NCBI GenBank assembly: GCA_905234175.1
Contig: CAJOGX010000005.1
Span: forward strand, 785 to 64,784
DNA: 64,000 nt
Direction of reading: 5' to 3'
From: an uncultured Selenomonadaceae bacterium
GTDB lineage: Bacteria; Bacillota; Negativicutes; Selenomonadales; Selenomonadaceae
Below the pieces are notes generated by a model that was not told where the DNA came from, did not search any database, and saw only the letters and a program-made list of their open reading frames with translations. A program made the translations under genes and the position numbers. Each line of letters begins with the position of its first letter. Positions within the stretch are counted from its first letter, which is position 1. Positions 4,217 to 42,183 of this stretch are shown piece by piece.

Positions 4217-4392
4217 CGTTTTACGGCTTTTACGGCATTTCTTTCGTGAAAGAAACGCCTGGCAAAGAAAGCTTTTCGCCCGTCAGGATTTTTCGCGTTC
4301 AGCCTCACTGTCTGATGGCATTGCTCCCGCGCACACCACGTTCCTCTTTCAGTGAGCGTCTACGTCAAAAATTTATGACGGGCGTTTTTTTT
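4217..4392 (+). repeat. dispersed structured intergenic element, copy A (just after the gpmI stop)
   Basis: About 165 nt, clearly similar by eye (identity not computed) to 20698-20860. Shared features: ttttacggcatttcttt, hairpin tttctttc-N-gaaagaaa, ggcaaagaaa, and cgcccgtcag...tgacgggc terminal pairing. Copy A ends in a T8 run. Confidence 0.8.
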
Positions 4393-4480
4393 GTGGTCGT
4401 TTTTTTTATGGGCGTTTTTTTATGGGCGTTTTTTATGGGCGTTTTTTTATGGGCGTTTTTTTATTTTTTGCGGGCGTTTA
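4378..4480 (+). repeat. T-rich tandem repeat (unit gggcgttttttt(t)at, 13-15 nt, about 6 copies)
   Basis: Direct reading: gggcgttttttttgtggtcgttttttttat gggcgtttttttat gggcgttttttat gggcgtttttttat gggcgtttttttatttttt gcgggcgtttatttg. Confidence 0.85.
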
Positions 4481-4491
4481 TTTGTTTTTAT

Positions 4492-29378: not shown

Positions 29379-30574
29379 CTGACTGGCGCGTTTACGAAAA
29401 GCGGGGCGCAGAATTTTACAAGCTTGGCGATGCTGAGGGCGCAGCTCAGGCGTATTTTGAAGCGGCGCGGGCGGATACGATTTTGAGGAAACAGCGCGAG
29501 CACTGGTCGAATTACATTTTCGCGCTGCACTACCTTCCGCAGTCGACGGCGCAAAATTTTTATGACGCGGCGCAGGTTTACAATGAGCTTTATCGTGACG
29601 TGGAGCCGCTGAAACTTTTGCCGAGGAAGGCTGGGAAAATTCATGTGGCGTACCTTTCGCCGAGCTTTGTGGAGTCGTCAGCTGCCAGATTTTACGAGGC
29701 GCTGTTGACGGAATACGACCGCGAAAAATTTTACGTGACGGCGTGGGATTTGTCGGAGCGCGCGGACAGTTTCACGGTGAAGATTCAGCGGAGCGTCGAC
29801 GGCTATTTCAACATTTCGGAGACGAGTTTTGAGGAGGCGGCGCAGGCTATTCGTGACAGCGGCGCGGATATTCTTTTCGATTTGGGCGGGCACACGGTTG
29901 GCGGCGAGACGCTGGAAGTTGCGGCGTACAGACCGGCGCGCGTGCAGATTTCGGGCGTTGGCTACTTCGACACGACGGGGCTCAGCGCGATTGACTATTT
30001 TCTGACGGATAATTTTCTGGCGGGCTCTCAAACTAAGTTCACGGAAAAAATTCTGGCTGTCGAGAATGCGTTTGCCTTTACGCCGAGCGAAAAAATGATT
30101 CGTGCCAGAGAAAATCTCAACTGGCGCGTGAAAAATTTTGCTTACGGCTGCCTGAATAATTTTATGAAAATCACGGACGGTTATCTTAGCGGCGTGAAAA
30201 AAATTCTGGCGAAAAATCCTGGCGCGAAGATTTTGTTCCGCGATACGACGCCGCTGGAGAGCCGAAAAAATTATCTGCTTGAGCGAATTGACAGCGCTGG
30301 GATTGAGCTTGAGCGCGTGGAAGTTCGGACTGGCGCAAACGATTTTCTGAGCGATTACGCGGAAGTTGATTTGATTTTGGACACGGCTCCTTACAACGGC
30401 GGTTTCATGACGGCGCTGGCGATTTTTATGGGCGTGGCTGTTTCGACGCGGGCTGGCGAACTTCATCACAGCCGGATTGGCGCTGACCTTGTGCGAATTT
30501 CTGAACGCGGCGCGCTTTTTGACACGAAAAATTTTGTTGCGAAGGTGTACGATAAATTTGCGGAAATTGTGTGA
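29375..30574 (+). CDS. TPR + GT41-like (SPINDLY/O-GlcNAc transferase C-terminal) glycosyltransferase
   Basis: The GTGA overlaps the thioesterase stop. VAYLSPSF...DILFDLGGHTVG...RPARVQISGVGYFDTTGL..IDYFLTD matches the GT41 catalytic region as I remember it. Confidence 0.7.
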   Translation: MTDWRVYEKRGAEFYKLGDAEGAAQAYFEAARADTILRKQREHWSNYIFALHYLPQSTAQNFYDAAQVYNELYRDVEPLKLLPRKAGKIHVAYLSPSFVESSAARFYEALLTEYDREKFYVTAWDLSERADSFTVKIQRSVDGYFNISETSFEEAAQAIRDSGADILFDLGGHTVGGETLEVAAYRPARVQISGVGYFDTTGLSAIDYFLTDNFLAGSQTKFTEKILAVENAFAFTPSEKMIRARENLNWRVKNFAYGCLNNFMKITDGYLSGVKKILAKNPGAKILFRDTTPLESRKNYLLERIDSAGIELERVEVRTGANDFLSDYAEVDLILDTAPYNGGFMTALAIFMGVAVSTRAGELHHSRIGADLVRISERGALFDTKNFVAKVYDKFAEIV

Positions 30575-31319
30575 CCTGCTGAGCTTTGTGCCGCCGAATT
30601 TTTCAAGCGACGCGGCAGTTTTGCTGATAGACTCGCCGGAATTTTTAGCTGGCGTGCGGGAACTCATGCCGAATGCGCAGATTTTCCAGCTGGCTTTGGA
30701 AGACGCGCTGCCGGTCGAGCCGAAAATTTTCGACGTGATAATTTCTCCGAACTGCCTGACGTTCGCGCGGGACTGCTATTGGAATTTGCTGGAACTCAAC
30801 CGGCTGTTGAAAGATTCGGGGTTCCTGCTAACGCAGTTTCTGAACGTGCGGTTCGTGGGAGTGCTGGAAAATTTAAAGCGCGGGGCTTTTCCGGCGGGCG
30901 AAAAAAGATTCTGGGCGAAGCGCGACGTAGTAAAAATTTTGGACGACGCGACGTTCAAGGAGATAAGATTTTTGCCAGGCGAGCGCGCGGAAATTTCAAC
31001 TGCCGCGTGGGAAGAATTTGGATTTGACAACTTCAGCGAAGATTTATCGACGCGGGTTTGGCTGGTAAAGGCGTGCAGGTGCACAGCGGAAGTGGCGGCG
31101 CTGAAAGAAATGTACACGCCGGAGGTTCGCGCGGAACTTTCGCGGCTGATTCATCGCGTGGAGTACGGGATAGACGCGGAAAAAAATTTGCAAGCGCTAG
31201 TTGAGCTGTGTCGGCGGGAAAAAATTTTCGTGGAGTATCTGGCGGACTTCGTGGAACAGGTCACGGTACACGCGGCGGCGGCGAAATTTATTCTGGCGGC
31301 GGTTGACAAATCAGTTTGA
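30567..31319 (+). CDS. probable class I SAM-dependent methyltransferase
   Basis: The TTG at 30567 overlaps the GT41 stop; an alternative GTG is at 30588. FDVIISPNCLTF...LNRLLKDSGFLL resembles post-I/II methyltransferase motifs. The C-terminal half is helical. Confidence 0.55.
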   Translation: MCDLLSFVPPNFSSDAAVLLIDSPEFLAGVRELMPNAQIFQLALEDALPVEPKIFDVIISPNCLTFARDCYWNLLELNRLLKDSGFLLTQFLNVRFVGVLENLKRGAFPAGEKRFWAKRDVVKILDDATFKEIRFLPGERAEISTAAWEEFGFDNFSEDLSTRVWLVKACRCTAEVAALKEMYTPEVRAELSRLIHRVEYGIDAEKNLQALVELCRREKIFVEYLADFVEQVTVHAAAAKFILAAVDKSV

Positions 31320-31349
31320 CTTGTGTAAAATTATTGAGCTTTTAAAAAA

Positions 31350-31423
<74 letters not shown>

Positions 31424-31441
31424 CTAAATATTTTTTGGTGT

Positions 31442-31671
31442 GAGCAACGGCTAGGGTCTTGGTTCGCGTCGCGCTTGAATTTTCTCAGCTTCGACTTCGG
31501 TCGGGGCTTTTTGGTTTGAGCAACGGCCAGGGTCTTGGTTCGCGCCGCGCTTGAATTTTCTCAGCCTCGATAAGCGTCGGGGCTTTTTTAGTTCGAGCAA
31601 CGGCTAGGGTCTTGATTCACGTCGCGCCTGAATTTTCTCAGCCTCGATGAATGTCGGGGCTTTTTTATTTT
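31442..31671 (+). repeat. three tandem 76-77-nt tRNA-derived units, each ending in a hairpin + T-run
   Basis: Units are 31442-31517, 31518-31594 and 31595-31671. Each starts gagcaacggc (= tRNA positions 22-31), then gggtc...ttcgcgtcgcgc (T-arm-like). Each ends gcctcga-N6-tcggggc + T5-6. Confidence 0.9.
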
Positions 31672-31680
31672 ATACGTGCC

Positions 31681-31708
31681 TTGACAGCCTGCAACGGGGG
31701 GGTATTAT
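31681..31708 (+). promoter_or_regulatory. near-consensus sigma70 promoter of the GTPase module (TTGACA - 16 nt - TATTAT)
   Basis: ttgaca at 31681-31686 and tattat at 31703-31708. This implies a ~100-nt leader before the GAAGGAGG RBS and the ATG at 31816. Confidence 0.65.
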
Positions 31709-31815
31709 ACACTTAAATTTATAGCGCAAAAATATTTCTGGAAATTGTCCCAGCGTACCAACAAAACGGAAAATCTTTGTGCTATGCTTGAAAAAAATTT
31801 GAAGGAGGCGTTCAA

Positions 31816-33864
31816 ATGAGCGATATTCAACAGGAGCTTGCGGCGTGCCGAGAATCTGCCGAAATTGGCTACCAGCTCGCGCAGGAAAGTTTTGAAAAGC
31901 TGCAGGAGGCGCTTGAAGAGGAGCGCGAAAAGCTCCGTGAGGCAGACCGCCGCCAGCAAAGTTCGCGGCTGGAAAACGACAGTCATTTTCAGGATCAGCT
32001 TTGGGAAATGAACCGGCTGGAGCGTGAGACCGTCAGTAGCGTCGAAGACAATCTGCGCGACCTCAGGAAAAAAATGGCGGACTTCACGATAGTTTTGTAC
32101 GGGCGGACGATGGCCGGAAAGTCGACGCTTATGGAAATTCTGCGGCACGGCGACGGCAGTTCAATCGGCAAGGGCGCACAGCGTACGACGCGGGACGTTC
32201 GCGCCTACACGTGGAACGGCTTGAAAATTTTTGACGTACCTGGCACCTGTTCGTTTGGCGGAGAGAGCGATGATAGACTTGCATACGAGGCGGCAAAGGA
32301 CGCGGATATTGCGCTGTTCCTGCTAACGGACGACGCTCCACAACCTTCCGAGGCGCAGCGTTTAGCCGAACTGCGCAAGCTCGGCAAGCCGGTTCTCGGT
32401 ATAGTCAACGTCAAGCAGGTTTTGTCGCCGGAGCGCAACAGTGCCAAGCGGAAAATGGATTTGCGGCAGCTCGATAAAAAAATTCACGATAAGACGCGGC
32501 TTGAGGAAATCGTCCAGCAGTTCAAGGAATTTTCAAAGGACAAAGGCTACAACTTTGAAGAGGTGCCGTTCGTGTATTCGCATTTGCAGTCGGCGTTTTT
32601 CTCCCAGCGCGAAAATGATTCGTCACTTTACGAGCTCAGCAACTTCGCGGCGGTGGAAAATTTTATTATTGAGAAAGTGCAAAACGACGGTCCATTCATT
32701 CGTATAAAAACTTTCGTCGACGCCGTTGCCCGCCCAATGCAAAAATCTATCGCCACGCTTTACGGGCAAAGCAGCGAAACTGTCAAGGCTTGGAAAAGTT
32801 ACGGCGACAAAATCACAGCGCTCAGGGAATGGCACGAAAGTTTTCTTAGCCGCGCTCAATCTCGCTACAACAATTTCAGAGACAATCTTGAATCGCAGCT
32901 GAACGCGAAAATTAATTATATCGTGAATAATTATTACGATACGTCACGCGCTGGCGAATACTGGATGCAGGCTGTCGAGGAGCTGAACATTGCGCGGCAG
33001 TGTCAAAGTTTTATTGAAGGAATTAGCGAGGAAGTTACTGATAAACTGCACGAACTCAGCGACGAACTCACGCAGGATTTGGAATATGCTGGCGTTGATT
33101 TCAGTGCGCCGGAAGTTTCGTACAAGGATACTGACGATGTTCAGGGCGGTTTGTTGCTTGCGGCGCCGTTTTTAGCGCTTACTCCCGTTGGTTGGGCAGG
33201 CGCGGCACTTTTTGGTTTAGGCTCGCTGCTTTTCGGTAAAAGTAAATCTGAGAAAATCGCAGAAGCTAAGCAAAAACTCCGCGCTGAATTAATTCCTTCC
33301 CGTGACGAAATTCTTAGTAAAACTACAGACAGCGTTTTAAATACGCTCAACGGGCAAATCATTGAAAGGCAAATAGTTGGCTTTGGAGATACGCTTTATT
33401 CTATGAGGGACAGACTGGCAGACCTTGCCTATGCTCAAAATGCCATAGCTGACACGATTAATTTCCAGTATCAGGACTTGAACTTTAAAATGCTCGTACG
33501 CGCGGCTATGTATTCTAACGTTGAACCCGACAAATTTTCAAACGTTACTACCGCTCGCATTGTTGGCAGGGAATTTGTTATCATTAATGCGACAAGAATG
33601 TATGTACCAAGCCAGCGCAAAATTTCTAACCTGATTGGCGAAAAAGTTACCGTTTATGAAGTAACCGCCGAGAATTATTTCGACGAAGTATTTAATAACG
33701 TGCGCGATAACATTCTCAATTATGAGTTCAGCTTCACCAAATTTTACGAGAACGAAGATACCGGCGATATGTACATAATTCTTCTGCCGCGCTACGAAAA
33801 TTTCTCGGATACACAGATTGAACTGACGCAGCAGCTGTTCAGCGACCCCGTTGTGTTTTATTAA
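31816..33864 (+). CDS. large P-loop GTPase with N-terminal coiled coil, helical stalk, membrane-hairpin segment and unknown C-terminal domain (dynamin-like, atypical)
   Basis: 682 aa. G1 GRTMAGKST (32101-32127), RTTRD, G3 DVPG. NVKQ stands where NKxD is expected. A hydrophobic Gly/Ala/Leu segment lies at 33145-33237. Confidence 0.8.
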   Translation: MSDIQQELAACRESAEIGYQLAQESFEKLQEALEEEREKLREADRRQQSSRLENDSHFQDQLWEMNRLERETVSSVEDNLRDLRKKMADFTIVLYGRTMAGKSTLMEILRHGDGSSIGKGAQRTTRDVRAYTWNGLKIFDVPGTCSFGGESDDRLAYEAAKDADIALFLLTDDAPQPSEAQRLAELRKLGKPVLGIVNVKQVLSPERNSAKRKMDLRQLDKKIHDKTRLEEIVQQFKEFSKDKGYNFEEVPFVYSHLQSAFFSQRENDSSLYELSNFAAVENFIIEKVQNDGPFIRIKTFVDAVARPMQKSIATLYGQSSETVKAWKSYGDKITALREWHESFLSRAQSRYNNFRDNLESQLNAKINYIVNNYYDTSRAGEYWMQAVEELNIARQCQSFIEGISEEVTDKLHELSDELTQDLEYAGVDFSAPEVSYKDTDDVQGGLLLAAPFLALTPVGWAGAALFGLGSLLFGKSKSEKIAEAKQKLRAELIPSRDEILSKTTDSVLNTLNGQIIERQIVGFGDTLYSMRDRLADLAYAQNAIADTINFQYQDLNFKMLVRAAMYSNVEPDKFSNVTTARIVGREFVIINATRMYVPSQRKISNLIGEKVTVYEVTAENYFDEVFNNVRDNILNYEFSFTKFYENEDTGDMYIILLPRYENFSDTQIELTQQLFSDPVVFY

Positions 33865-33877
33865 GGAGGGCGGCGCA

Positions 33878-35542
33878 ATGACGAATTTTCAGCTTGAAGA
33901 ATTTGTGCGGCGCGGCGGCGTTTTGCTCAGCGATACCAGAAAAATTTTCGCGGACTACGACGGCCTCGGTTTGGAATTTAAGCCGCTGCCCGAAACTATG
34001 AAACCGGCTGAAGGTCCTATCAAGCTCGTGTTCGTTGGGCAGTACAGTTCCGGCAAGTCCAGCATAATAAAAATGCTCAGCGGTATCGAGACGGAAATTG
34101 GCGCCGGTATCAAGACGCAGGAGGCGCATACCTACCGCTGGGGCGATTTGGAAATTATCGACACGCCTGGCATTCATACAGAAATTCGCCCCGACCACGA
34201 CGAGAAAACTTACTACGAAATCGACCACGCCGCGCTTCTTATTTTCGTCGTCACCAACGAAGGCTTCGATGACCGCATGGGCAAGCACTTCCGCAAGCTC
34301 GCCATTGAACAGGATCGCGGCAAAAATATGGTGCTGGTCGTCAACAAAATGGACAGGACGGGTCTCGGCAACGTCCCAGAACAGCAGGAAGTTATCGCGC
34401 AGGATTTGAAAAAAGTTATCGAGCCGCTCACGCCGGAAAGTTTGTACCTCAGCTTCCTCGACACTGAATCTTATTTCGCGTGGCTGGACGAAACCGACGA
34501 AGAAATTAAAAATTTGCTGTACGAACAGAGCGGCCTTGAAAAATTCGTTACGAATCTTAACGCGTTCGTAGCAAGTCGCGGAGTACTTTCCAAAGTTCAG
34601 GCGCCACTCGAAACGCTCAAAAGCGCCGTCACCAACGTTATCGGCGAATCCGAAAACTTGAGCGTCGACCGTGACATTGACGCGGCGGAAGAACTTTTGC
34701 GGCGCCGCCAGAAAACGCTCCTCGACGGCAGGCGCAGAATCAATACCGAAATCAGCGAGCTTGCCGAAACGCTCTGCACGAAAATCAAAACCGAGGGATC
34801 CAACGCCGCCAGCAAAATCGTCGCCGGCATAAGCGAGGACGAAGCCAAACGCGTAGTTGAGGCCGCCCAACTTCAGGCGGAAACTTACGTAAGCGCCTAC
34901 AAATCCCAAATTTCCAGCCGCCTCGCTGATATCTGTATCGAAATCGGAAAGGAAATTGACACAATCGACAGCTCCAATTTCGCCGTGAACGTGCAGGTTA
35001 ATCTTAGCAACCGCATTTCCAGCGCCCCCAGTAACGACGCCAACGCGCTTACTCTGACGAAGAACGCACTTTCTTTGGACGTTGCGCTGACTTCAGGTGA
35101 GGTGGCGGCTAACAGTTCCGGTCTTATCAGCACTGTCAAGGAAATTGGGAAGTTCCTCGGCTTCAAATTTGCGCCGTGGGGAGCCGTCAATCTCGTCAAA
35201 TATCTCGGCTGGATTGGCGCTGCGTATTCCGCCTGGCAGATTCTCAAAACGCTTTTCGGCGAAGATAAGCAAAAAAAAATGGAGGAAGACCTCCGTAAGG
35301 CGCGAGAAGAAATTCAGAACGGTTTCAACGCGGCGGCTGAAAATATTCGCACGGAAATTATTCGCGAAACGACCAGCAAAATGGACGAGCTTACCGCGCC
35401 AGTCCTTCGCGAAGCCAACGATAAAATTGCGGAATTTCAGCGCAAGAAAGACCGACTCAAATCGCTGGGGCACGCGCTCCAAAAAATTCTCGCAGATGTC
35501 AAAACGCTGATGAGCGAAGTCCAGCAGACTGCAAAGGCGTGA
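33878..35542 (+). CDS. dynamin-family GTPase (bacterial dynamin-like protein)
   Basis: 554 aa. ATG lies 8 nt after AAGGAGGG. G1 GQYSSGKSS (34037-34063), G3 DTPG (34160), G4 NKMD (34343). A long charged helical region and a hydrophobic segment FAPWGAVNLVKYLGWIGAAYSAWQIL follow. Confidence 0.85.
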   Translation: MTNFQLEEFVRRGGVLLSDTRKIFADYDGLGLEFKPLPETMKPAEGPIKLVFVGQYSSGKSSIIKMLSGIETEIGAGIKTQEAHTYRWGDLEIIDTPGIHTEIRPDHDEKTYYEIDHAALLIFVVTNEGFDDRMGKHFRKLAIEQDRGKNMVLVVNKMDRTGLGNVPEQQEVIAQDLKKVIEPLTPESLYLSFLDTESYFAWLDETDEEIKNLLYEQSGLEKFVTNLNAFVASRGVLSKVQAPLETLKSAVTNVIGESENLSVDRDIDAAEELLRRRQKTLLDGRRRINTEISELAETLCTKIKTEGSNAASKIVAGISEDEAKRVVEAAQLQAETYVSAYKSQISSRLADICIEIGKEIDTIDSSNFAVNVQVNLSNRISSAPSNDANALTLTKNALSLDVALTSGEVAANSSGLISTVKEIGKFLGFKFAPWGAVNLVKYLGWIGAAYSAWQILKTLFGEDKQKKMEEDLRKAREEIQNGFNAAAENIRTEIIRETTSKMDELTAPVLREANDKIAEFQRKKDRLKSLGHALQKILADVKTLMSEVQQTAKA

Positions 35543-35546
35543 TTCA

Positions 35547-36008
35547 ATGAAAAAATTTTGGCGCCCAGCTATTGATAAGGCGGACAAAATTTCCAAAATA
35601 CCAGACAACATTTCCAAAATCGCAGACGACGTTTCAAAAATTGCTAATGGCGCTCCGAGAAATTTGCCGCTGGAACCGAAAAAGAAAGATTCACAAAGCG
35701 TGCTGGCGCTCTTCCAGACAGCGCAGCGGTCAATAAAACAAAAAATCGCACCTTCCAAAACCATTCAGGAAATTTTTCAGGAGGCGCAGAAAACCGCGCG
35801 AAAATCCGCCAGAGCAGCCGAAAAAGTCCGGCAGAAATCGCCGCCGAAAATTCAATCCGCAATATCTGACGGAGTATCGTTTTTCATATTAAAATTTATA
35901 TTAGCTGCCGCCGCCATCATTTTTTTATTGTCGAGCATAAATTTAGGTTCAGTTATAGTTTTTATTTACATGATTTGGCTTGTTATCAAATTAATTATCA
36001 GCGATTAG
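35547..36008 (+). CDS. small membrane protein with N-terminal ISKI-type repeats and two C-terminal TM helices
   Basis: 153 aa, starting 4 nt after the GTPase-2 stop. DKISKIPDNISKIADDVSKIANG is followed by a Lys-rich linker, then FFILKFILAAAAIIFLL and VIVFIYMIWLVIKLII. Confidence 0.6.
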   Translation: MKKFWRPAIDKADKISKIPDNISKIADDVSKIANGAPRNLPLEPKKKDSQSVLALFQTAQRSIKQKIAPSKTIQEIFQEAQKTARKSARAAEKVRQKSPPKIQSAISDGVSFFILKFILAAAAIIFLLSSINLGSVIVFIYMIWLVIKLIISD

Positions 36009-37444: not shown

Positions 37445-37530
37445 TTTTATCACTCGCTTTCAACGCCCAAATTATAATTCACTGAACAATTTTCAGCAAG
37501 CAAAATACGAAAAAAAGGCGCTCCATGGAA

Positions 37531-37562
37531 TAAAAAAAGAGGCGCCCCATGGACGGGGCGCC
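37531..37562 (-). terminator. intrinsic terminator downstream of the lactate permease gene
   Basis: Minus strand: ggcgcccc-gtccat-ggggcgcc (8-bp GC stem) followed by tcttttttt. A half-copy, ccatggagcgcc + T7, follows at about 37511-37530. Confidence 0.8.
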
Positions 37563-39822: not shown

Positions 39823-42183
39823 ATGGCGGACGATAACGGAAATCCTTCGCGCGGGGGCAGTTCCGTCTGGCGCGGGATTAAGACGTTCCTGAAAATTATT
39901 CTTGGAATTGTAATTTTTATAGTCGTTACGGTGGCCGGCGTTGGAATTGGCTTTATGACGGCGAATATGAACGCGCGCCCCGATGTTGCCGGCGAAATTG
40001 TTCCGCAGGCGTCGTCTCAGATTTACGATTCGGCGGGCAACGAAATTGCCAACATTCACGCGGCGGAAAATCGCATGCCCGTCAAGATTGAGCAGATCCC
40101 GATAAATCTTCAGCGCGCGTTTATCGCCATCGAGGACAACCGCTTTTACGAACATAACGGCATTGACCCTCGCGGCTTAGCCCGTGCCATCTATTCAAAT
40201 ATTTCCAAGCAGGAAATTGCTGAGGGCGGCTCCACGATTACTCAGCAGCTGGCAAAAAACGCTTACCTCACGCAGGAACGCACGATTAAGCGCAAGGTGC
40301 AGGAAGTTTTTCTCGCGCTCCAGCTTGAAAAGCAGTACACAAAGCAGGAAATTCTGGAATTTTATCTGAACCAGATTTACTTCGGGCGCGGCGCTTACGG
40401 CGTGCAGGCGGCGGCTAAAACTTACTTCAACAAAAACGTCGAAGAATTGAACCTGTCCGAGTGCGCGCTCCTAGCCGGTATTCCTAAAAGCCCGAACTAT
40501 TATTCGCCGTTCAACGATATACAGGCGGCAGTTGAGCGCAGAAATCTTGTGCTCGACCAGATGGTTAAGTACCGCTACCTCAGCCGCGACGAAGCCAACG
40601 AGGCGAAAAACGCTGAGCTTGTCCTTGCCTCGCCAAACCGCCCCGAAGAGCAGAAGGACGCGGAATATTTCATAACCTACGTCACGCAGGAGATGATTGA
40701 GAAATTCGGCGCCGACGCGGTTTACAAGGAAGGGCTGAAAATTTACACGACGATTGATATGGACATGCAGCGAATGGCTGAGCAGGCGGTTGCCAACAAT
40801 CTGCCGAACGACTACACCGACGCCAACGGCATTCAGCAGCCCCAATGCGCTATCGTTGCGATTGAGCCGAAAACCGGCTACGTTCGCGTTATGTTCGGCG
40901 GACGCGGTACCGACCAGTTCAACCGCGCGGCGCAGGCGGAGCGTCAGCCTGGCTCTTCATTCAAGCCCTTCGTTTTTGCCGCCGCACTCGAAAACGGTTT
41001 CACGCCCGACACGATGATTGAGGACAGCCCGATTAATATCAACGGCTGGCAGCCCCAAAACGACAGTCGGCGTTTCAGCGGCAACGTTTCAATGCGCACC
41101 GTCGCAACTTTTTCCATGAACGTCCCGACCGTCAAAATCGCGCAGAAAATTGGTATCGACAACATTATTTACTATGCGCAGCAGATGGGCATTACAACTT
41201 TCGTCATGGACGGCGCCACTAACGACAGAAATCTGGCGACTTCCCTCGGCGGACTCACGCGCGGCGTTACCCCCCTGGAAATTGCCAGCGCCTATTGCAC
41301 TTTTGCGAACGGCGGCATTCATATTCCTCACACTTCCGTTACAAAAGTTCTCGACCGCAAAGGCAACGTCATTTTTGAGGCCGTGCCCGAAGGCGTCGCC
41401 GTTATCACGCCCGAAAGCGCCGCCAGTCTTACCAGTATGCTCGAAGACGTTATCACAAAGGGCAGCGGCCGCCGCGCCGCGATTGGCAGACCCGCCGCCG
41501 GGAAAACCGGCACGACCAGCGATTATAAGGACGCGTGGTTTGTAGGCTACACGCCGGATTTGGTCGCCGCTGTCTGGGTTGGCAACGACGACGGCACCAC
41601 GACCAACGGCATTATGGGCGGCCAGACGCCAGCCGCAACCTGGAGCGATTTCATGTACCAGGCGCTTGCTAATACGCCCGTCCACTATTTCAGCGAGCTT
41701 GTTGTTGAGCGCAGACAGGTTTCACGCCCGCCCGCGCCCGAACAAATTCAGCCGCCAGATGAACCCGCGCCAGCTCCTGCGCCCAGCCGTTCCTATGCAG
41801 ATTATTCTTATCAGCCTGAACCGCGCTACCGTGAAGATTATCCGCCGGAACCTGAGCCGGAGCCCGAACCGTCTTACACGGAGCCGGAACCCAGCTACTA
41901 CGACGAGCCCGCGCCGTCTTACGAGGAGCCTTCCTACAGCGAGCCGGAGCAAAATTATTATGACGAGCCGAGCTACAACGATTCGAGTTACAGCGAGCCG
42001 GAGCAAAATTATTACGACGAGCCGAGCTACAGCGAGCCGGAGCAAAATTATTACGACGAGCCGAGCTACAGCGAGCCGGAACAAAATTATTACGACGAGC
42101 CGAGCTATAACGATTCCTATGACGATTCTTACTACGACGACGCGCCGACGCCTGGCGATGACCTTGCGAAGGGCGCGGATTGA
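39823..42183 (+). CDS. penicillin-binding protein 1A (GT51 transglycosylase + transpeptidase) with a long repetitive acidic Tyr/Pro/Glu tail
   Basis: ATG follows GGAGGTG. EDNRFYEHNGID and GGSTITQQ (GT51); SSFKPF, SMN and KTGTT (transpeptidase). The last ~160 aa are low complexity. Confidence 0.92.
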   Translation: MADDNGNPSRGGSSVWRGIKTFLKIILGIVIFIVVTVAGVGIGFMTANMNARPDVAGEIVPQASSQIYDSAGNEIANIHAAENRMPVKIEQIPINLQRAFIAIEDNRFYEHNGIDPRGLARAIYSNISKQEIAEGGSTITQQLAKNAYLTQERTIKRKVQEVFLALQLEKQYTKQEILEFYLNQIYFGRGAYGVQAAAKTYFNKNVEELNLSECALLAGIPKSPNYYSPFNDIQAAVERRNLVLDQMVKYRYLSRDEANEAKNAELVLASPNRPEEQKDAEYFITYVTQEMIEKFGADAVYKEGLKIYTTIDMDMQRMAEQAVANNLPNDYTDANGIQQPQCAIVAIEPKTGYVRVMFGGRGTDQFNRAAQAERQPGSSFKPFVFAAALENGFTPDTMIEDSPININGWQPQNDSRRFSGNVSMRTVATFSMNVPTVKIAQKIGIDNIIYYAQQMGITTFVMDGATNDRNLATSLGGLTRGVTPLEIASAYCTFANGGIHIPHTSVTKVLDRKGNVIFEAVPEGVAVITPESAASLTSMLEDVITKGSGRRAAIGRPAAGKTGTTSDYKDAWFVGYTPDLVAAVWVGNDDGTTTNGIMGGQTPAATWSDFMYQALANTPVHYFSELVVERRQVSRPPAPEQIQPPDEPAPAPAPSRSYADYSYQPEPRYREDYPPEPEPEPEPSYTEPEPSYYDEPAPSYEEPSYSEPEQNYYDEPSYNDSSYSEPEQNYYDEPSYSEPEQNYYDEPSYSEPEQNYYDEPSYNDSYDDSYYDDAPTPGDDLAKGAD
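41938..42106 (+). repeat. in-frame tandem DNA repeats (39-nt unit, SEPEQNYYDEPSY) inside the PBP1A tail
   Basis: agcgagccggagcaaaattattacgacgagccgagctac recurs about 4 times, nearly identically. One copy carries a 15-nt insertion. Confidence 0.9.

Follow-up and report, generated by a model that had tools for sequence, protein, structure and literature searches.

A tandem array of partial tRNA-Arg copies with predicted terminator hairpins downstream of the tRNA-Arg(UCU) gene in a Selenomonadaceae bacterium

Three contiguous repeat units, each composed of a damaged piece of a tRNA gene and a hairpin followed by a T-run, lie directly behind the tRNA-Arg(UCU) gene in the 64-kb window (the whole stretch of DNA analyzed, 64,000 nucleotides). 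The array probably arose by local tandem duplication of part of the tRNA gene together with its terminator, followed by changes in copy number, and it probably acts as a set of transcription terminators. All features of this locus in the window are on the forward strand.

Results

The array is by a wide margin the strongest tandem repeat that Tandem Repeats Finder detects in the window. The program places it at 31431–31671, with a period of 76–77, 3.1 copies, 86–87% matches and a score of about 350. Unit 1 (31442–31517; 76.0 bits against the unit profile) consists of a head (31442–31474), a spacer (31475–31486), a hairpin (31487–31508) and a T-run. Unit 2 (31518–31594; 80.9 bits) has its head at 31518–31550 and its hairpin at 31563–31584, and unit 3 (31595–31671; 79.8 bits) has them at 31595–31627 and 31640–31661, each hairpin again being followed by a T-run. 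Every unit opens with GAGCAACGGC, which equals bases 23–32 of the tRNA gene, that is, canonical tRNA positions 22–31. The initial annotation, made from the sequence by inspection, had described three highly similar 76–77-nt units at 31442–31671 that begin with tRNA positions 22–31. The start positions 31442, 31518 and 31595 are upheld, the shared opening is present in all units, and the pairwise identities of 68/78, 65/77 and 67/77 (84–87%) bear out the similarity. A peptide-coding role of the units was considered and rejected. The period is not divisible by three, and the sole start-to-stop frame, read from the sequence, has 18 codons, a TTG start and no ribosome-binding site.

The parent of the repeat is the tRNA-Arg(UCU) gene at 31350–31423, whose assignment as a real tRNA-Arg(TCT) holds. 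ARAGORN makes a single tRNA-Arg(tct) call at 31350–31424, and the gene scores 68.2 bits with the Rfam tRNA model. It does not encode CCA; reading from the sequence, the discriminator A is followed by CTA. A promoter-like site (TTGACA, 17 nt, TAAAAT) with 11/12 consensus matches is found upstream at 31303–31331. The TTGAC...TAAAAT pair also precedes the tRNA in the related loci L006, L009, L013, L014 and L032. Between the tRNA and unit 1 is the spacer CTAAATATTTTTTGGTGT (31424–31441), which contains a T-run and no hairpin. In relatives this is the site of the primary terminator, T0.

Each unit ends in a 9-bp hairpin, five pairs of which are G–C, with a 4-nt loop and a following run of T5–6. The hairpin energies of the three units are −12.4 to −12.8 kcal/mol. 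The loops vary and the stem is kept, as had been noticed at the outset, and the 3′ arm TCGGGGCT is invariant among the window units. Across all units of both unit-bearing lineages (see below) the 3′ arm and the T-run are unchanged, and changes in the 5′ arm mostly place C or U opposite G. The G+C-rich stem-loop plus T-run of an intrinsic terminator is therefore present at three sites, and these sites are co-oriented with the tRNA and precede the next promoter-like site. The earlier suggestion that the hairpin arm of unit 2 resembles the tRNA 5′ end depends on a loop that differs in all other units, and the resemblance is taken as chance.

The order in the window is the promoter-like site at 31303–31331, the tRNA, the array, and a second promoter-like site (TTGACA, 16 nt, TATTAT) at 31681–31708, directly past the array. 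The array is thus flanked on both sides by promoter-like sites with 11/12 consensus matches. The second site is kept directly past the last terminator in L009, L031/L032, L030 and L033. It precedes an operon at 31816–36008, which is context outside the repeat and encodes a 682-aa GTPase, a 563-aa dynamin-like GTPase and a 153-aa ORF. The Pfam matches in this operon are MMR_HSR1, Dynamin_N and DLP_helical.

The T0 hairpin is missing in the window. In L009, L031/L032 and L006/L015 a hairpin of roughly 22 nt lies between ATATTTT and TTTTTTAGTT. Because the window lineage is without it, the units are the only predicted terminators between the tRNA promoter and that of the GTPase operon. The array most likely represents stacked stop signals that would insulate the downstream operon. 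A multiple intrinsic terminator shielding that operon from tRNA read-through was one of three explanations offered by the initial annotation, and, as judged from sequence anatomy and comparison, it is the best functional reading. Two further terminators in the window have their 3′ arm and T-run duplicated in tandem, which makes a duplication mechanism plausible in this genome.

The proposed descent of the units from the adjacent tRNA is supported by statistical alignment. The 33-nt head of unit 1 has a local alignment score of 28 against the tRNA, which none of 2000 dinucleotide shuffles reaches. The scores of the heads of units 2 and 3 are reached by 9/2000 and 21/2000 shuffles, respectively. 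The similarity is above chance overall and weak for units 2 and 3 taken singly. The head of a better-preserved unit from a relative scores 33, compared with 13.6 ± 2.5 for shuffles, and both unit heads of L006 outscore all 2000 shuffles. Among 11,560 genomic 33-mers the highest score against the tRNA is 27. An nhmmer profile built from five units matches the tRNA-to-terminator segment (model positions 1–76) with E = 3.6e-13 in L006/L015, 1.9e-11 in L031/L032 and 3e-9 in L009.

Each unit aligns collinearly with the L009 and L006 segment that extends from tRNA position 22 to T0, except for two gap blocks of ~10 nt. Unit A of L006 is identical to its own such segment at 64/77 positions. The resemblance of the units to the tRNA gene with its flank is thus both significant and collinear, as in tRNA-derived sequence. 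The tRNA piece comprises positions 22–65 with internal deletions, the acceptor 3′ strand (66–73) is deleted in all units, and each unit also holds a copy of the post-tRNA spacer and the terminator. The alignment confirms that the units lack the anticodon loop, the 3′ strand of the anticodon stem and an intact T-stem. All five units, from two lineages, start at one left border, tRNA position 22, and share both deletions and the T-stem lesion. This common left border together with the common indels indicates a single origin.

The units are not detected as tRNA by ARAGORN or by Rfam RF00005, even at E ≤ 10; only 31350–31423 is detected. An identity as tRNA pseudogenes was rejected on this ground, and also because each unit has an altered 5′ strand in the T-stem and has neither anticodon loop nor acceptor strands.

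The locus was compared with 33 fetched loci, to which the L-numbers refer, among them loci of relatives from rumen Selenomonadaceae. The usual state in these relatives is a tRNA with the single terminator T0. L009 and L031/L032 have T0 alone and zero units, L015 has T0 and one unit, and L006 has T0 and two units. Three units are present in the window and in three independent assemblies (L001–L003). No unit is found in 12 other loci with an identical tRNA core, most of which have a single terminator. Two unit-bearing lineages can be read, that of the window and that of L006/L015. The three lineages are about equidistant, with 83–85% methyltransferase identity, and zero-unit loci are compatible with being either ancestral or secondary.

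The single unit of L015 combines the head of L006 unit A with the tail of L006 unit B, as unequal exchange would predict. The difference of one versus two units between these loci could also be an assembly collapse. There is no tRNA at the corresponding position in the more distant methyltransferase homologues L010, L011 and L012. The Logan contigs L013, L014 and L016 end within the tRNA, and the contigs of L030 and L033 begin within the last hairpin. The copy-number series is drawn from contigs readable through the array, which those of the two lineages closest to the window are not.

From the homology, the anatomy and the copy-number series, which are established, we infer the following order of events as well as termination itself. 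In the ancestral layout, which appears to persist in relatives, tRNA-Arg(UCU) would have followed a promoter and been separated by a 13-nt spacer from a single intrinsic terminator, T0. About 100 nt, from canonical tRNA position 22 to just beyond T0, would have been duplicated in tandem, and the extra copy, without the tRNA 5′ third, would have been unable to serve as a tRNA. Deletions in this duplicate may then have removed the anticodon loop along with the 3′ strand of its stem, and also the acceptor 3′ strand. With the 5′ strand of its T-stem altered from GCGC to TTG, these lesions would have given rise to a unit of 77 nt. Copy numbers of 0, 1, 2 or 3, depending on the lineage, would stem from slippage or unequal crossing-over between units. 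In the window lineage, the T0 hairpin would have been deleted between its two flanking T-runs.

In the present arrangement, a transcript from the strong tRNA promoter is predicted to run about 90 nt beyond the tRNA and end at the hairpin and T-run of unit 1. Read-through would be caught by units 2 and 3. The downstream operon, with its own promoter starting 10 nt past the array, would in this way be insulated from tRNA transcription. Since the tRNA has no encoded CCA, the trailer of roughly 90 nt would be cut away during 3′ maturation. The tRNA-like head would be a passenger.

The array was initially also proposed to mark the border of an accessory region. That part of the claim stands insofar as the presence of the GTPase operon is variable among relatives. 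The G+C content of the module is lower. Module remnants are retained in L033 and L006, which argues for loss rather than gain, and the pattern looks like repeated loss, not insertion at the tRNA. The DNA behind the array shows little alignable similarity between the window and L006.

Conservation of the head was assessed by comparing the lineages of the window and of L006. Head sequences diverge at 10% of sites, and one of the 33 sites is a fixed difference. Four-fold degenerate sites of the flanking genes differ at 25%, the spacer, 5′ arm and loop of the units at 40–53%, and unconstrained intergenic DNA at about 50%. At a rate of 0.25, one or fewer fixed differences among 33 sites have a probability of 9e-4. 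The head is much better conserved between the two lineages than neutral sites are, which fits poorly with the view of the head as a passenger. In unit B of L006 the tRNA-derived blocks of the head are without any difference, next to a hairpin that has decayed to −3.5 kcal/mol. We considered gene conversion from the tRNA as the cause of this conservation and rejected it, since blocks of identity reach only 11, 5 and 13 nt in length and the indels have not been erased.

Discussion

The conservation of the head bears on whether the units do more than terminate transcription. The tRNA-derived head might be functional in its own right, so that the unit or the tRNA trailer would be a small RNA with a 33-nt conserved body and a terminator hairpin. 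It might act by base-pairing or through a tRNA-recognising protein, with the terminators doubling as RNA 3′ ends. We consider this unlikely, with a small yet appreciable chance of being correct. The low divergence of the head, its intact state beside a decayed hairpin in L006 unit B, and the improbability of gene conversion as another cause all speak for it. RNAalifold also predicts a three-part hairpin in the head, in which the changes at pair 9–28 (GU to GC and GU to AU) keep the pairing. tRNA 3′ trailers ending at an intrinsic terminator can be functional RNAs, as in the case of 3′ETS-LeuZ (PMC6191717).

Several observations weigh against a functional head. The sample consists of two lineages and five units that are not independent. 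No pair has changed on both sides, and the covariation counts are not above those of shuffles. The folding energy of whole units is no better than that of shuffles (z −0.07 to −1.28), the terminator hairpin being the only exception within single units. The units contain no promoter-like site, and related lineages live without units. No Rfam family matches them: a scan of 30500–32500 at E ≤ 10 returned tRNA only, with Plastid-ycf2 (antisense to the tRNA), ceN108 and ncS54 far below their gathering scores.

It is likewise doubtful that the head is under purifying selection and that the units are tRNA-derived trailer RNAs cut from the tRNA-Arg precursor, each with a conserved body and a terminator hairpin. 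The head retains the 3′ strand of the D-stem, the 5′ strand of the anticodon stem, the variable loop, the T-loop and the 3′ strand of the T-stem. Such trailer RNAs might, for example, serve as sponges, or as decoys that bind a tRNA-recognising factor or pair with the complementary stem strands of the tRNA-Arg precursor.

The units might instead be what is left of a former tandem array of entire tRNA-Arg genes, each of which lost its 5′ third and internal parts, and the initial annotation listed such a decayed array among its explanations. We regard this as improbable. The units are homologous to the tRNA, and that much of the proposal, descent from tRNA-Arg, stands. The first duplication could even have spanned the whole gene and terminator, with the 5′ third being lost before amplification. 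Independent decay of whole genes is the part that fails. The left border and the three lesions are common to five units in two lineages, which implies that the damage happened once, before amplification, and not gene by gene. No second intact tRNA-Arg exists at the locus in the relatives examined (L006, L009, L015 and L031/L032). The equality of the period with a tRNA gene length, which had suggested whole genes, is coincidental; a segment of roughly 100 nt minus two deletions gives 77 nt. The likeliest history, as read from these sequences, is that of one partial duplicate, comprising the 3′ two-thirds of the tRNA and the terminator, that was damaged once and then amplified.

The third explanation offered at the outset is that the units are stacked att-type scars from repeated integration and excision at the tRNA-Arg gene, with the GTPase module as the last cargo. 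This tRNA does serve as an integration target elsewhere. In L020/L027, which have an identical tRNA core, a Phage_integrase gene (PF00589, E = 4e-35) lies ~90 nt downstream. The module is also variably present and of lower G+C content. However, the units are without the acceptor 3′ end, which att sites at tRNA genes preserve. Their left border falls before the anticodon stem, and they carry the spacer and terminator of the chromosome itself. Gene calls over about 12 kb on the downstream side and 6 kb on the upstream side include no integrase, and no Phage_integrase occurs among the called genes of L001 and L009 or the tested ORFs of the window. A matching direct repeat is absent from the far end of the GTPase module, and there is none elsewhere in the 64 kb. 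Scans of viral contigs with the unit and the tRNA 3′ end as queries gave 0 matches, and no phage or plasmid sequence matched the array in blastn. Units occur without the module in L006 and L015, and the module without units in L009 and L031/L032. The module remnants in L033 and L006 again favor loss over gain. Integration scars are very improbable on this evidence, and we drop them as an explanation.

A genome-wide family of REP-like or terminator-associated repeats with no relation to tRNA is also very improbable as the source of the units. Their homology to the tRNA-terminator segment is significant, and the 64-kb window and the 33 loci contain no extra copies apart from the homologous arrays. 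Among 185,579 species representatives the head 20-mer occurs in a single Selenomonadaceae genome, once (5 matches, of which 4 are chance-level in unrelated taxa and only that in L006 is relevant), and a degenerate head pattern has 0 matches in JGI metagenomes, which hold little of this clade.

Among known systems, the closest analogue of the array is the 178-bp repeat distal to the E. coli tRNA-Tyr genes tyrT-tyrV, from which rtT/RttR RNA and the tpr ORF derive. It too is tandem, starts inside a tRNA gene and runs into the 3′ flank. In both cases every unit opens with a piece of tRNA, there are about 3.1 copies, and the repeat is at the end of a tRNA transcript. The E. coli repeat after tyrV (NC_000913) has a period of 178, 3.1 copies and 95% matches. 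The final ~19 nt of tRNA-Tyr open each of its units, and the annotation places rttR and tpr within the repeat. The window array thus has the rtT-like architecture of tandem units that each open with a fragment of the upstream tRNA.

The two repeats have no sequence relationship, and Rfam rtT has no match in 30500–32500 at E ≤ 10. The window unit is 77 nt long, whereas the E. coli unit is 178 nt. The tRNA piece in the window covers positions 22–65, is internally deleted and lacks the acceptor end, whereas that of E. coli is the intact last 19 nt. Each window unit has its own predicted intrinsic terminator; termination at E. coli tyrT is Rho-dependent according to the older literature. An RNA product encoded by one E. 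coli tyrT-distal unit has been reported (Bosl and Kersten 1991, as cited in PMC3318445). The window units, by contrast with the E. coli repeat, contain no ORF. A literature search for tandem repeats of partial tRNAs with terminators returned nothing relevant.

The array also resembles other arrangements in part. The T1-T2 pair of rrnB consists of tandem intrinsic terminators after highly expressed stable-RNA genes. The window likewise has several co-oriented sites of hairpin and T-run behind a strong stable-RNA promoter, which would shield the next transcription unit, but these predicted terminators are paralogous copies of one another, duplicated along with part of a gene. As in 3′ETS-LeuZ (PMC6191717), unit 1 would form the 3′ trailer of a transcript in which a tRNA is followed by an intrinsic terminator; the likeness is one of predicted architecture, and in the window the body of the trailer is tRNA-derived and the element is repeated. 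The tRNA 3′-end duplications at attL/attR are also partial copies downstream of an intact gene, of which L027 is a genuine example with the same tRNA core. The window units differ from them in lacking the acceptor end and an integrase, in being adjacent to one another and not flanking a cargo, and in including the host terminator. Like tRNA pseudogenes, the units descend from a tRNA gene and are non-functional as tRNA, but their 5′ third is missing, and the anticodon, T and acceptor stems have each lost one strand or had it altered.

Arrays of this kind break short-read assemblies, and several metagenome contigs end within the tRNA or the last hairpin. A caution for annotation is that tRNA-like fragments arrayed beside tRNA genes are not necessarily integration scars or rows of pseudogenes.

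The array is a neat by-product of genome evolution, and an ordinary one. Its intermediate stages of 0, 1, 2 and 3 copies document how terminators multiply by a tandem duplication that drags along part of a tRNA gene, and duplicates of a terminator can take over once the original has been lost. If the conservation of the head holds, the array would be of wider interest, as a bacterial tRNA fragment recruited into a new small RNA.

The tandem array downstream of tRNA-Arg(UCU)

The sole tRNA of the 64 kb is a tRNA-Arg(tct), placed by ARAGORN at 31350–31424 and scored by the Rfam tRNA model at 68.2 bits (31350–31423). The sequence of the gene does not encode CCA. A promoter-like site precedes it on the forward strand at 31303–31331 (TTGACA, 17 nt, TAAAAT; 11 of 12 consensus matches). 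Behind the gene lies the top-scoring array of the window in Tandem Repeats Finder (31431–31671, forward strand), with a period of 76–77 nt, 3.1 copies and 86–87% matches. In the register of the initial annotation, units 1, 2 and 3 occupy 31442–31517, 31518–31594 and 31595–31671 on the same strand, with pairwise identities of 68/78, 65/77 and 67/77. Every unit closes with a 9-bp hairpin with a 4-nt loop (−12.4, −12.8 and −12.8 kcal/mol), followed by five or six T. The three tandem tRNA-length units that the annotation described after tRNA-Arg are thus real. Ten bases past the array end is a second forward promoter-like site (31681–31708, 11/12 matches), then a ribosome-binding site and, from 31816, the gene of a 682-aa GTPase. 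A search of the 64 kb found no second site for either half of the unit.

Just ahead of unit 1, TTTGGTGTG is complementary to the last bases of the tRNA and the spacer (CGCACTAAA). The predicted hairpin (31416–31444, −10.3 kcal/mol) occurs in the window lineage only and, in the precursor, would form in competition with the acceptor stem.

Descent of the unit from the tRNA gene

The first 33 nt of unit 1, its head, align with tRNA positions 22–65 at a score of 28, which 0 of 2000 dinucleotide shuffles reach (baseline 14.0 ± 2.7); the best genomic 33-mer scores 27 against the tRNA (n = 11,560). Units 2 and 3 alone display weak similarity to the tRNA, their scores being reached by 9 and 21 of 2000 shuffles. 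The homology emerges clearly from the relatives. A pattern scan of genomes gave one relevant match, L006, a Selenomonadaceae MAG from buffalo rumen, where the order is methyltransferase gene, tRNA-Arg(UCU), the primary terminator hairpin (T0) and two units, A and B. The L006 heads are nearer to the tRNA (GAGCAACGGCC-A-GGGTC-TTG-GTTCGAGTCGCGC; score 33, 0/2000 shuffles), the tails are near-copies of the post-tRNA spacer and T0, and unit A is identical to its own tRNA22-to-T0 segment at 64 of 77 positions. A profile built from the five units of the window and L006 matches this segment along the entire model: E = 3.6e-13 for L006 and L015, 1.9e-11 for L031 and L032, and 3e-9 for L009, all rumen Selenomonadaceae.

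As these alignments read, the unit copies the stretch that begins at tRNA position 22 and runs to the terminator end, with three lesions. One is the loss of eleven bases, which took away the 3′ strand of the anticodon stem and, from position 33 on, the anticodon loop; in the T-stem, TTG stands in place of GCGC on the 5′ strand; and about ten bases spanning the acceptor 3′ strand are gone. The lesions and the left border are common to all five units in both lineages, and therefore the damage would have happened once, before amplification. The derivation from the adjacent tRNA-Arg proposed earlier holds, and the agreement between the period and the length of a tRNA gene is accidental, the 77 nt being left over from a segment of about 100 nt.

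Copy number among relatives

Unit copy number varies among rumen Selenomonadaceae, as found by looking up the same interval through homologues of the flanking proteins. In L009 (methyltransferase 83% identical) and L031/L032 (GTPase 82% identical), the tRNA and T0 are followed at once by the operon promoter, with zero units. L015 carries T0 and one unit, L006 carries T0 and two, and the window carries three, as do L001–L003, independent assemblies of other samples whose units agree with those of the window at every base. None of 12 further JGI metagenome loci with the identical 45-nt tRNA-Arg(UCU) core bears a unit, and most show one terminator. On these comparisons, the array results from a lineage-restricted tandem duplication that took in the 3′ two-thirds of tRNA-Arg(UCU) along with the terminator.

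In its head the lone unit of L015 corresponds to unit A of L006 and in its tail to unit B, the combination expected from unequal exchange between units; collapse in assembly may give the same. The zero-unit state could be either ancestral or a secondary loss, both being compatible with the roughly equal methyltransferase distances that separate the window, L006 and L009 lineages (83–85% amino-acid identity).

Seven short-read unitig contigs (L002, L003, L013, L014, L016, L030 and L033) start or stop within the tRNA core or within the hairpin of the last terminator. From position 22 to 66 this core is shared without a difference by many unrelated bacteria, which probably explains such breaks of the assembly graph in metagenomes. 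The breaks inside the hairpin suggest repeat copies out of sight in those lineages.

Loss of T0 and the probable role of the unit hairpins

In the relatives the tRNA is followed by ATATTTT(C), a hairpin and TTTTTTAGTT; in the window it is followed by CTAAATATTTTTTGGTGT, and the hairpin of about 22 nt is absent. Deletion of T0 between its two flanking T-runs would yield the window state. With T0 absent, the first hairpin and T-run after the tRNA are those of unit 1, about 90 nt downstream. RNA polymerase from the strong tRNA promoter would terminate there, and read-through would be caught by units 2 and 3, so that, judging from the anatomy, the downstream operon would be driven by its own promoter only. 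The loss of T0 offers a simple reason for the intact state of all three window hairpins; in L006, which carries T0, decay has weakened the final unit's hairpin to −3.5 kcal/mol.

No change occurs in the 3′ arm TCGGGGCT or the T-run of any unit or T0 observed, substitutions in the 5′ arm are mostly C/U exchanges facing a G, and the loops vary freely. This pattern supports a terminator role. Given how tRNAs mature in Bacillota, the trailer of this CCA-less tRNA would be removed endonucleolytically. In the window genome the array appears to provide the sole terminators that stand between the tRNA promoter and the next operon. The initial annotation had offered, as one of three explanations, a triple intrinsic terminator insulating the GTPase module; the hairpin and T-run anatomy and its conservation argue for this, and termination would follow from that anatomy.

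Other repeats occur in the window. At 4380–4489 about six copies of a 14-nt unit (GGGCGTTTTTTTAT), trailed by degenerate ones, lie directly behind a terminator-like hairpin (cgtcaaaaatttatgacg); the repeats look like a terminator 3′ arm and T-run multiplied by slippage. Between the DUF327 and lactate permease genes (about 37501–37532), an extra partial terminator 3′ arm and T-run (ATTCCATGGAGCGCCTTTTTTT) follows GGGGCGCCCCGTCCATGGGGCGCCTCTTTTTTT, present in the window and L001 and missing in L015. In this genome, terminator parts seem to have been multiplied in tandem more than once. The 39-nt unit at 41984–42107 (3.2 copies, 97% identity, with a looser 24-nt periodicity from 41940) is probably a coding repeat, since 39 is divisible by three. 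Inside the 153-aa ORF, a 21-nt unit (35583–35641, 2.8 copies) encodes KISKIPDNISKIADDVSKIA-type heptad repeats.

Conservation of the head and alternative readings

Between the window and L006 lineages, 0.10 of the head sites differ, with one fixed difference at position 26, against 0.44 in the spacer, 0.40 in the hairpin 5′ arm and 0.53 in the loop. Four-fold degenerate sites differ at 0.25 in both the methyltransferase gene (70/93 identical) and holB (115/153 identical), and the unconstrained part of another intergenic region at about 0.5. At a rate of 0.25, 33 sites would show no more than one difference with a probability of 9e-4. The apparent lack of drift in the head does not fit the view of the head as a mere passenger. 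Among the window units, head and spacer differ at 0.08 and 0.06 and the loops at 0.72.

If the head is functional, the unit would be a trailer RNA derived from the tRNA, comparable to 3′ETS-LeuZ (PMC6191717) or to rtT. The slow divergence of the head speaks for this, as does L006 unit B, whose head fully matches the tRNA-derived blocks next to its decayed hairpin. RNAalifold gives the head a weak three-part hairpin (1–4/32–35, 7–10/27–30, 13–15/22–24), in which both changes at pair 9–28 preserve pairing. However, no pair of the head has changes on both sides, the counts are not above those of shuffles, and the whole unit folds no better than shuffled sequence. The conservation is moreover seen across two lineages and five related units, and we regard a functional head as unlikely and its conservation as a hint rather than a finding. 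Gene conversion by the tRNA gene probably does not account for that conservation, as the identical blocks are just 11, 5 and 13 nt and indels persist.

Of the proposal that the units are decayed tRNA-Arg copies, the descent stands; as tRNA pseudogenes they fail, being undetected by ARAGORN and the Rfam tRNA model. A dispersed repeat family is unlikely, the window, the fetched loci and the genome and metagenome scans containing no copies outside the homologous arrays. Stacked att-like scars, also proposed, are dismissed: the units lack the acceptor end, contain the host's own terminator and are adjacent to each other instead of flanking cargo, with no partner elsewhere in the window, no integrase in the L001 and L009 gene lists or Pfam scan, and no match to the unit or to this tRNA 3′ end in viral contigs, phages or plasmids.

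Units and GTPase module occur independently of each other. The module (two dynamin-like GTPases and the 153-aa ORF) is intact in the window at 31816–36008. The first GTPase is fragmented in L009 (7045–8983), the second is split in L031 (2303–3966), the third ORF alone is left in the contig L033 (2732–3241), and L006 (1505–1700) and L015 keep a mere remnant of that ORF's 5′ end. Because relatives hold such fragments and remnants, the module looks to be undergoing loss, not insertion. A genuine integration site at the tRNA-Arg(UCU) core exists in another organism: the G+C-rich metagenome contig L020/L027 (L027 148–1381) has the identical 45-nt core and a tyrosine integrase gene about 90 nt downstream of the tRNA (PF00589 Phage_integrase, E = 4e-35).

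Comparison with known arrays

Among described cases, the nearest is the tandem repeat that follows tyrT/tyrV in E. coli. Its units in NC_000913 are 178 bp long and number 3.1, with 95% matches; all open with the final ~19 nt of tRNA-Tyr, and the array contains the annotated rttR and tpr. For one unit an RNA product has been reported (Bosl and Kersten 1991, as cited in PMC3318445). Both arrays are seeded inside a tRNA gene, have about three copies and lie in a termination region. In contrast to the E. coli array, to which it bears no sequence relationship and no Rfam rtT match, the window array has a shorter unit, an internally deleted tRNA piece without the acceptor end, and an intrinsic terminator in each unit. 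We also class it with the tandem terminators that follow stable-RNA genes, and it is a fresh example of an already known type of structure. The feature is real and its origin is now explained; the conservation of the head is the sole point able to raise the interest of the locus.
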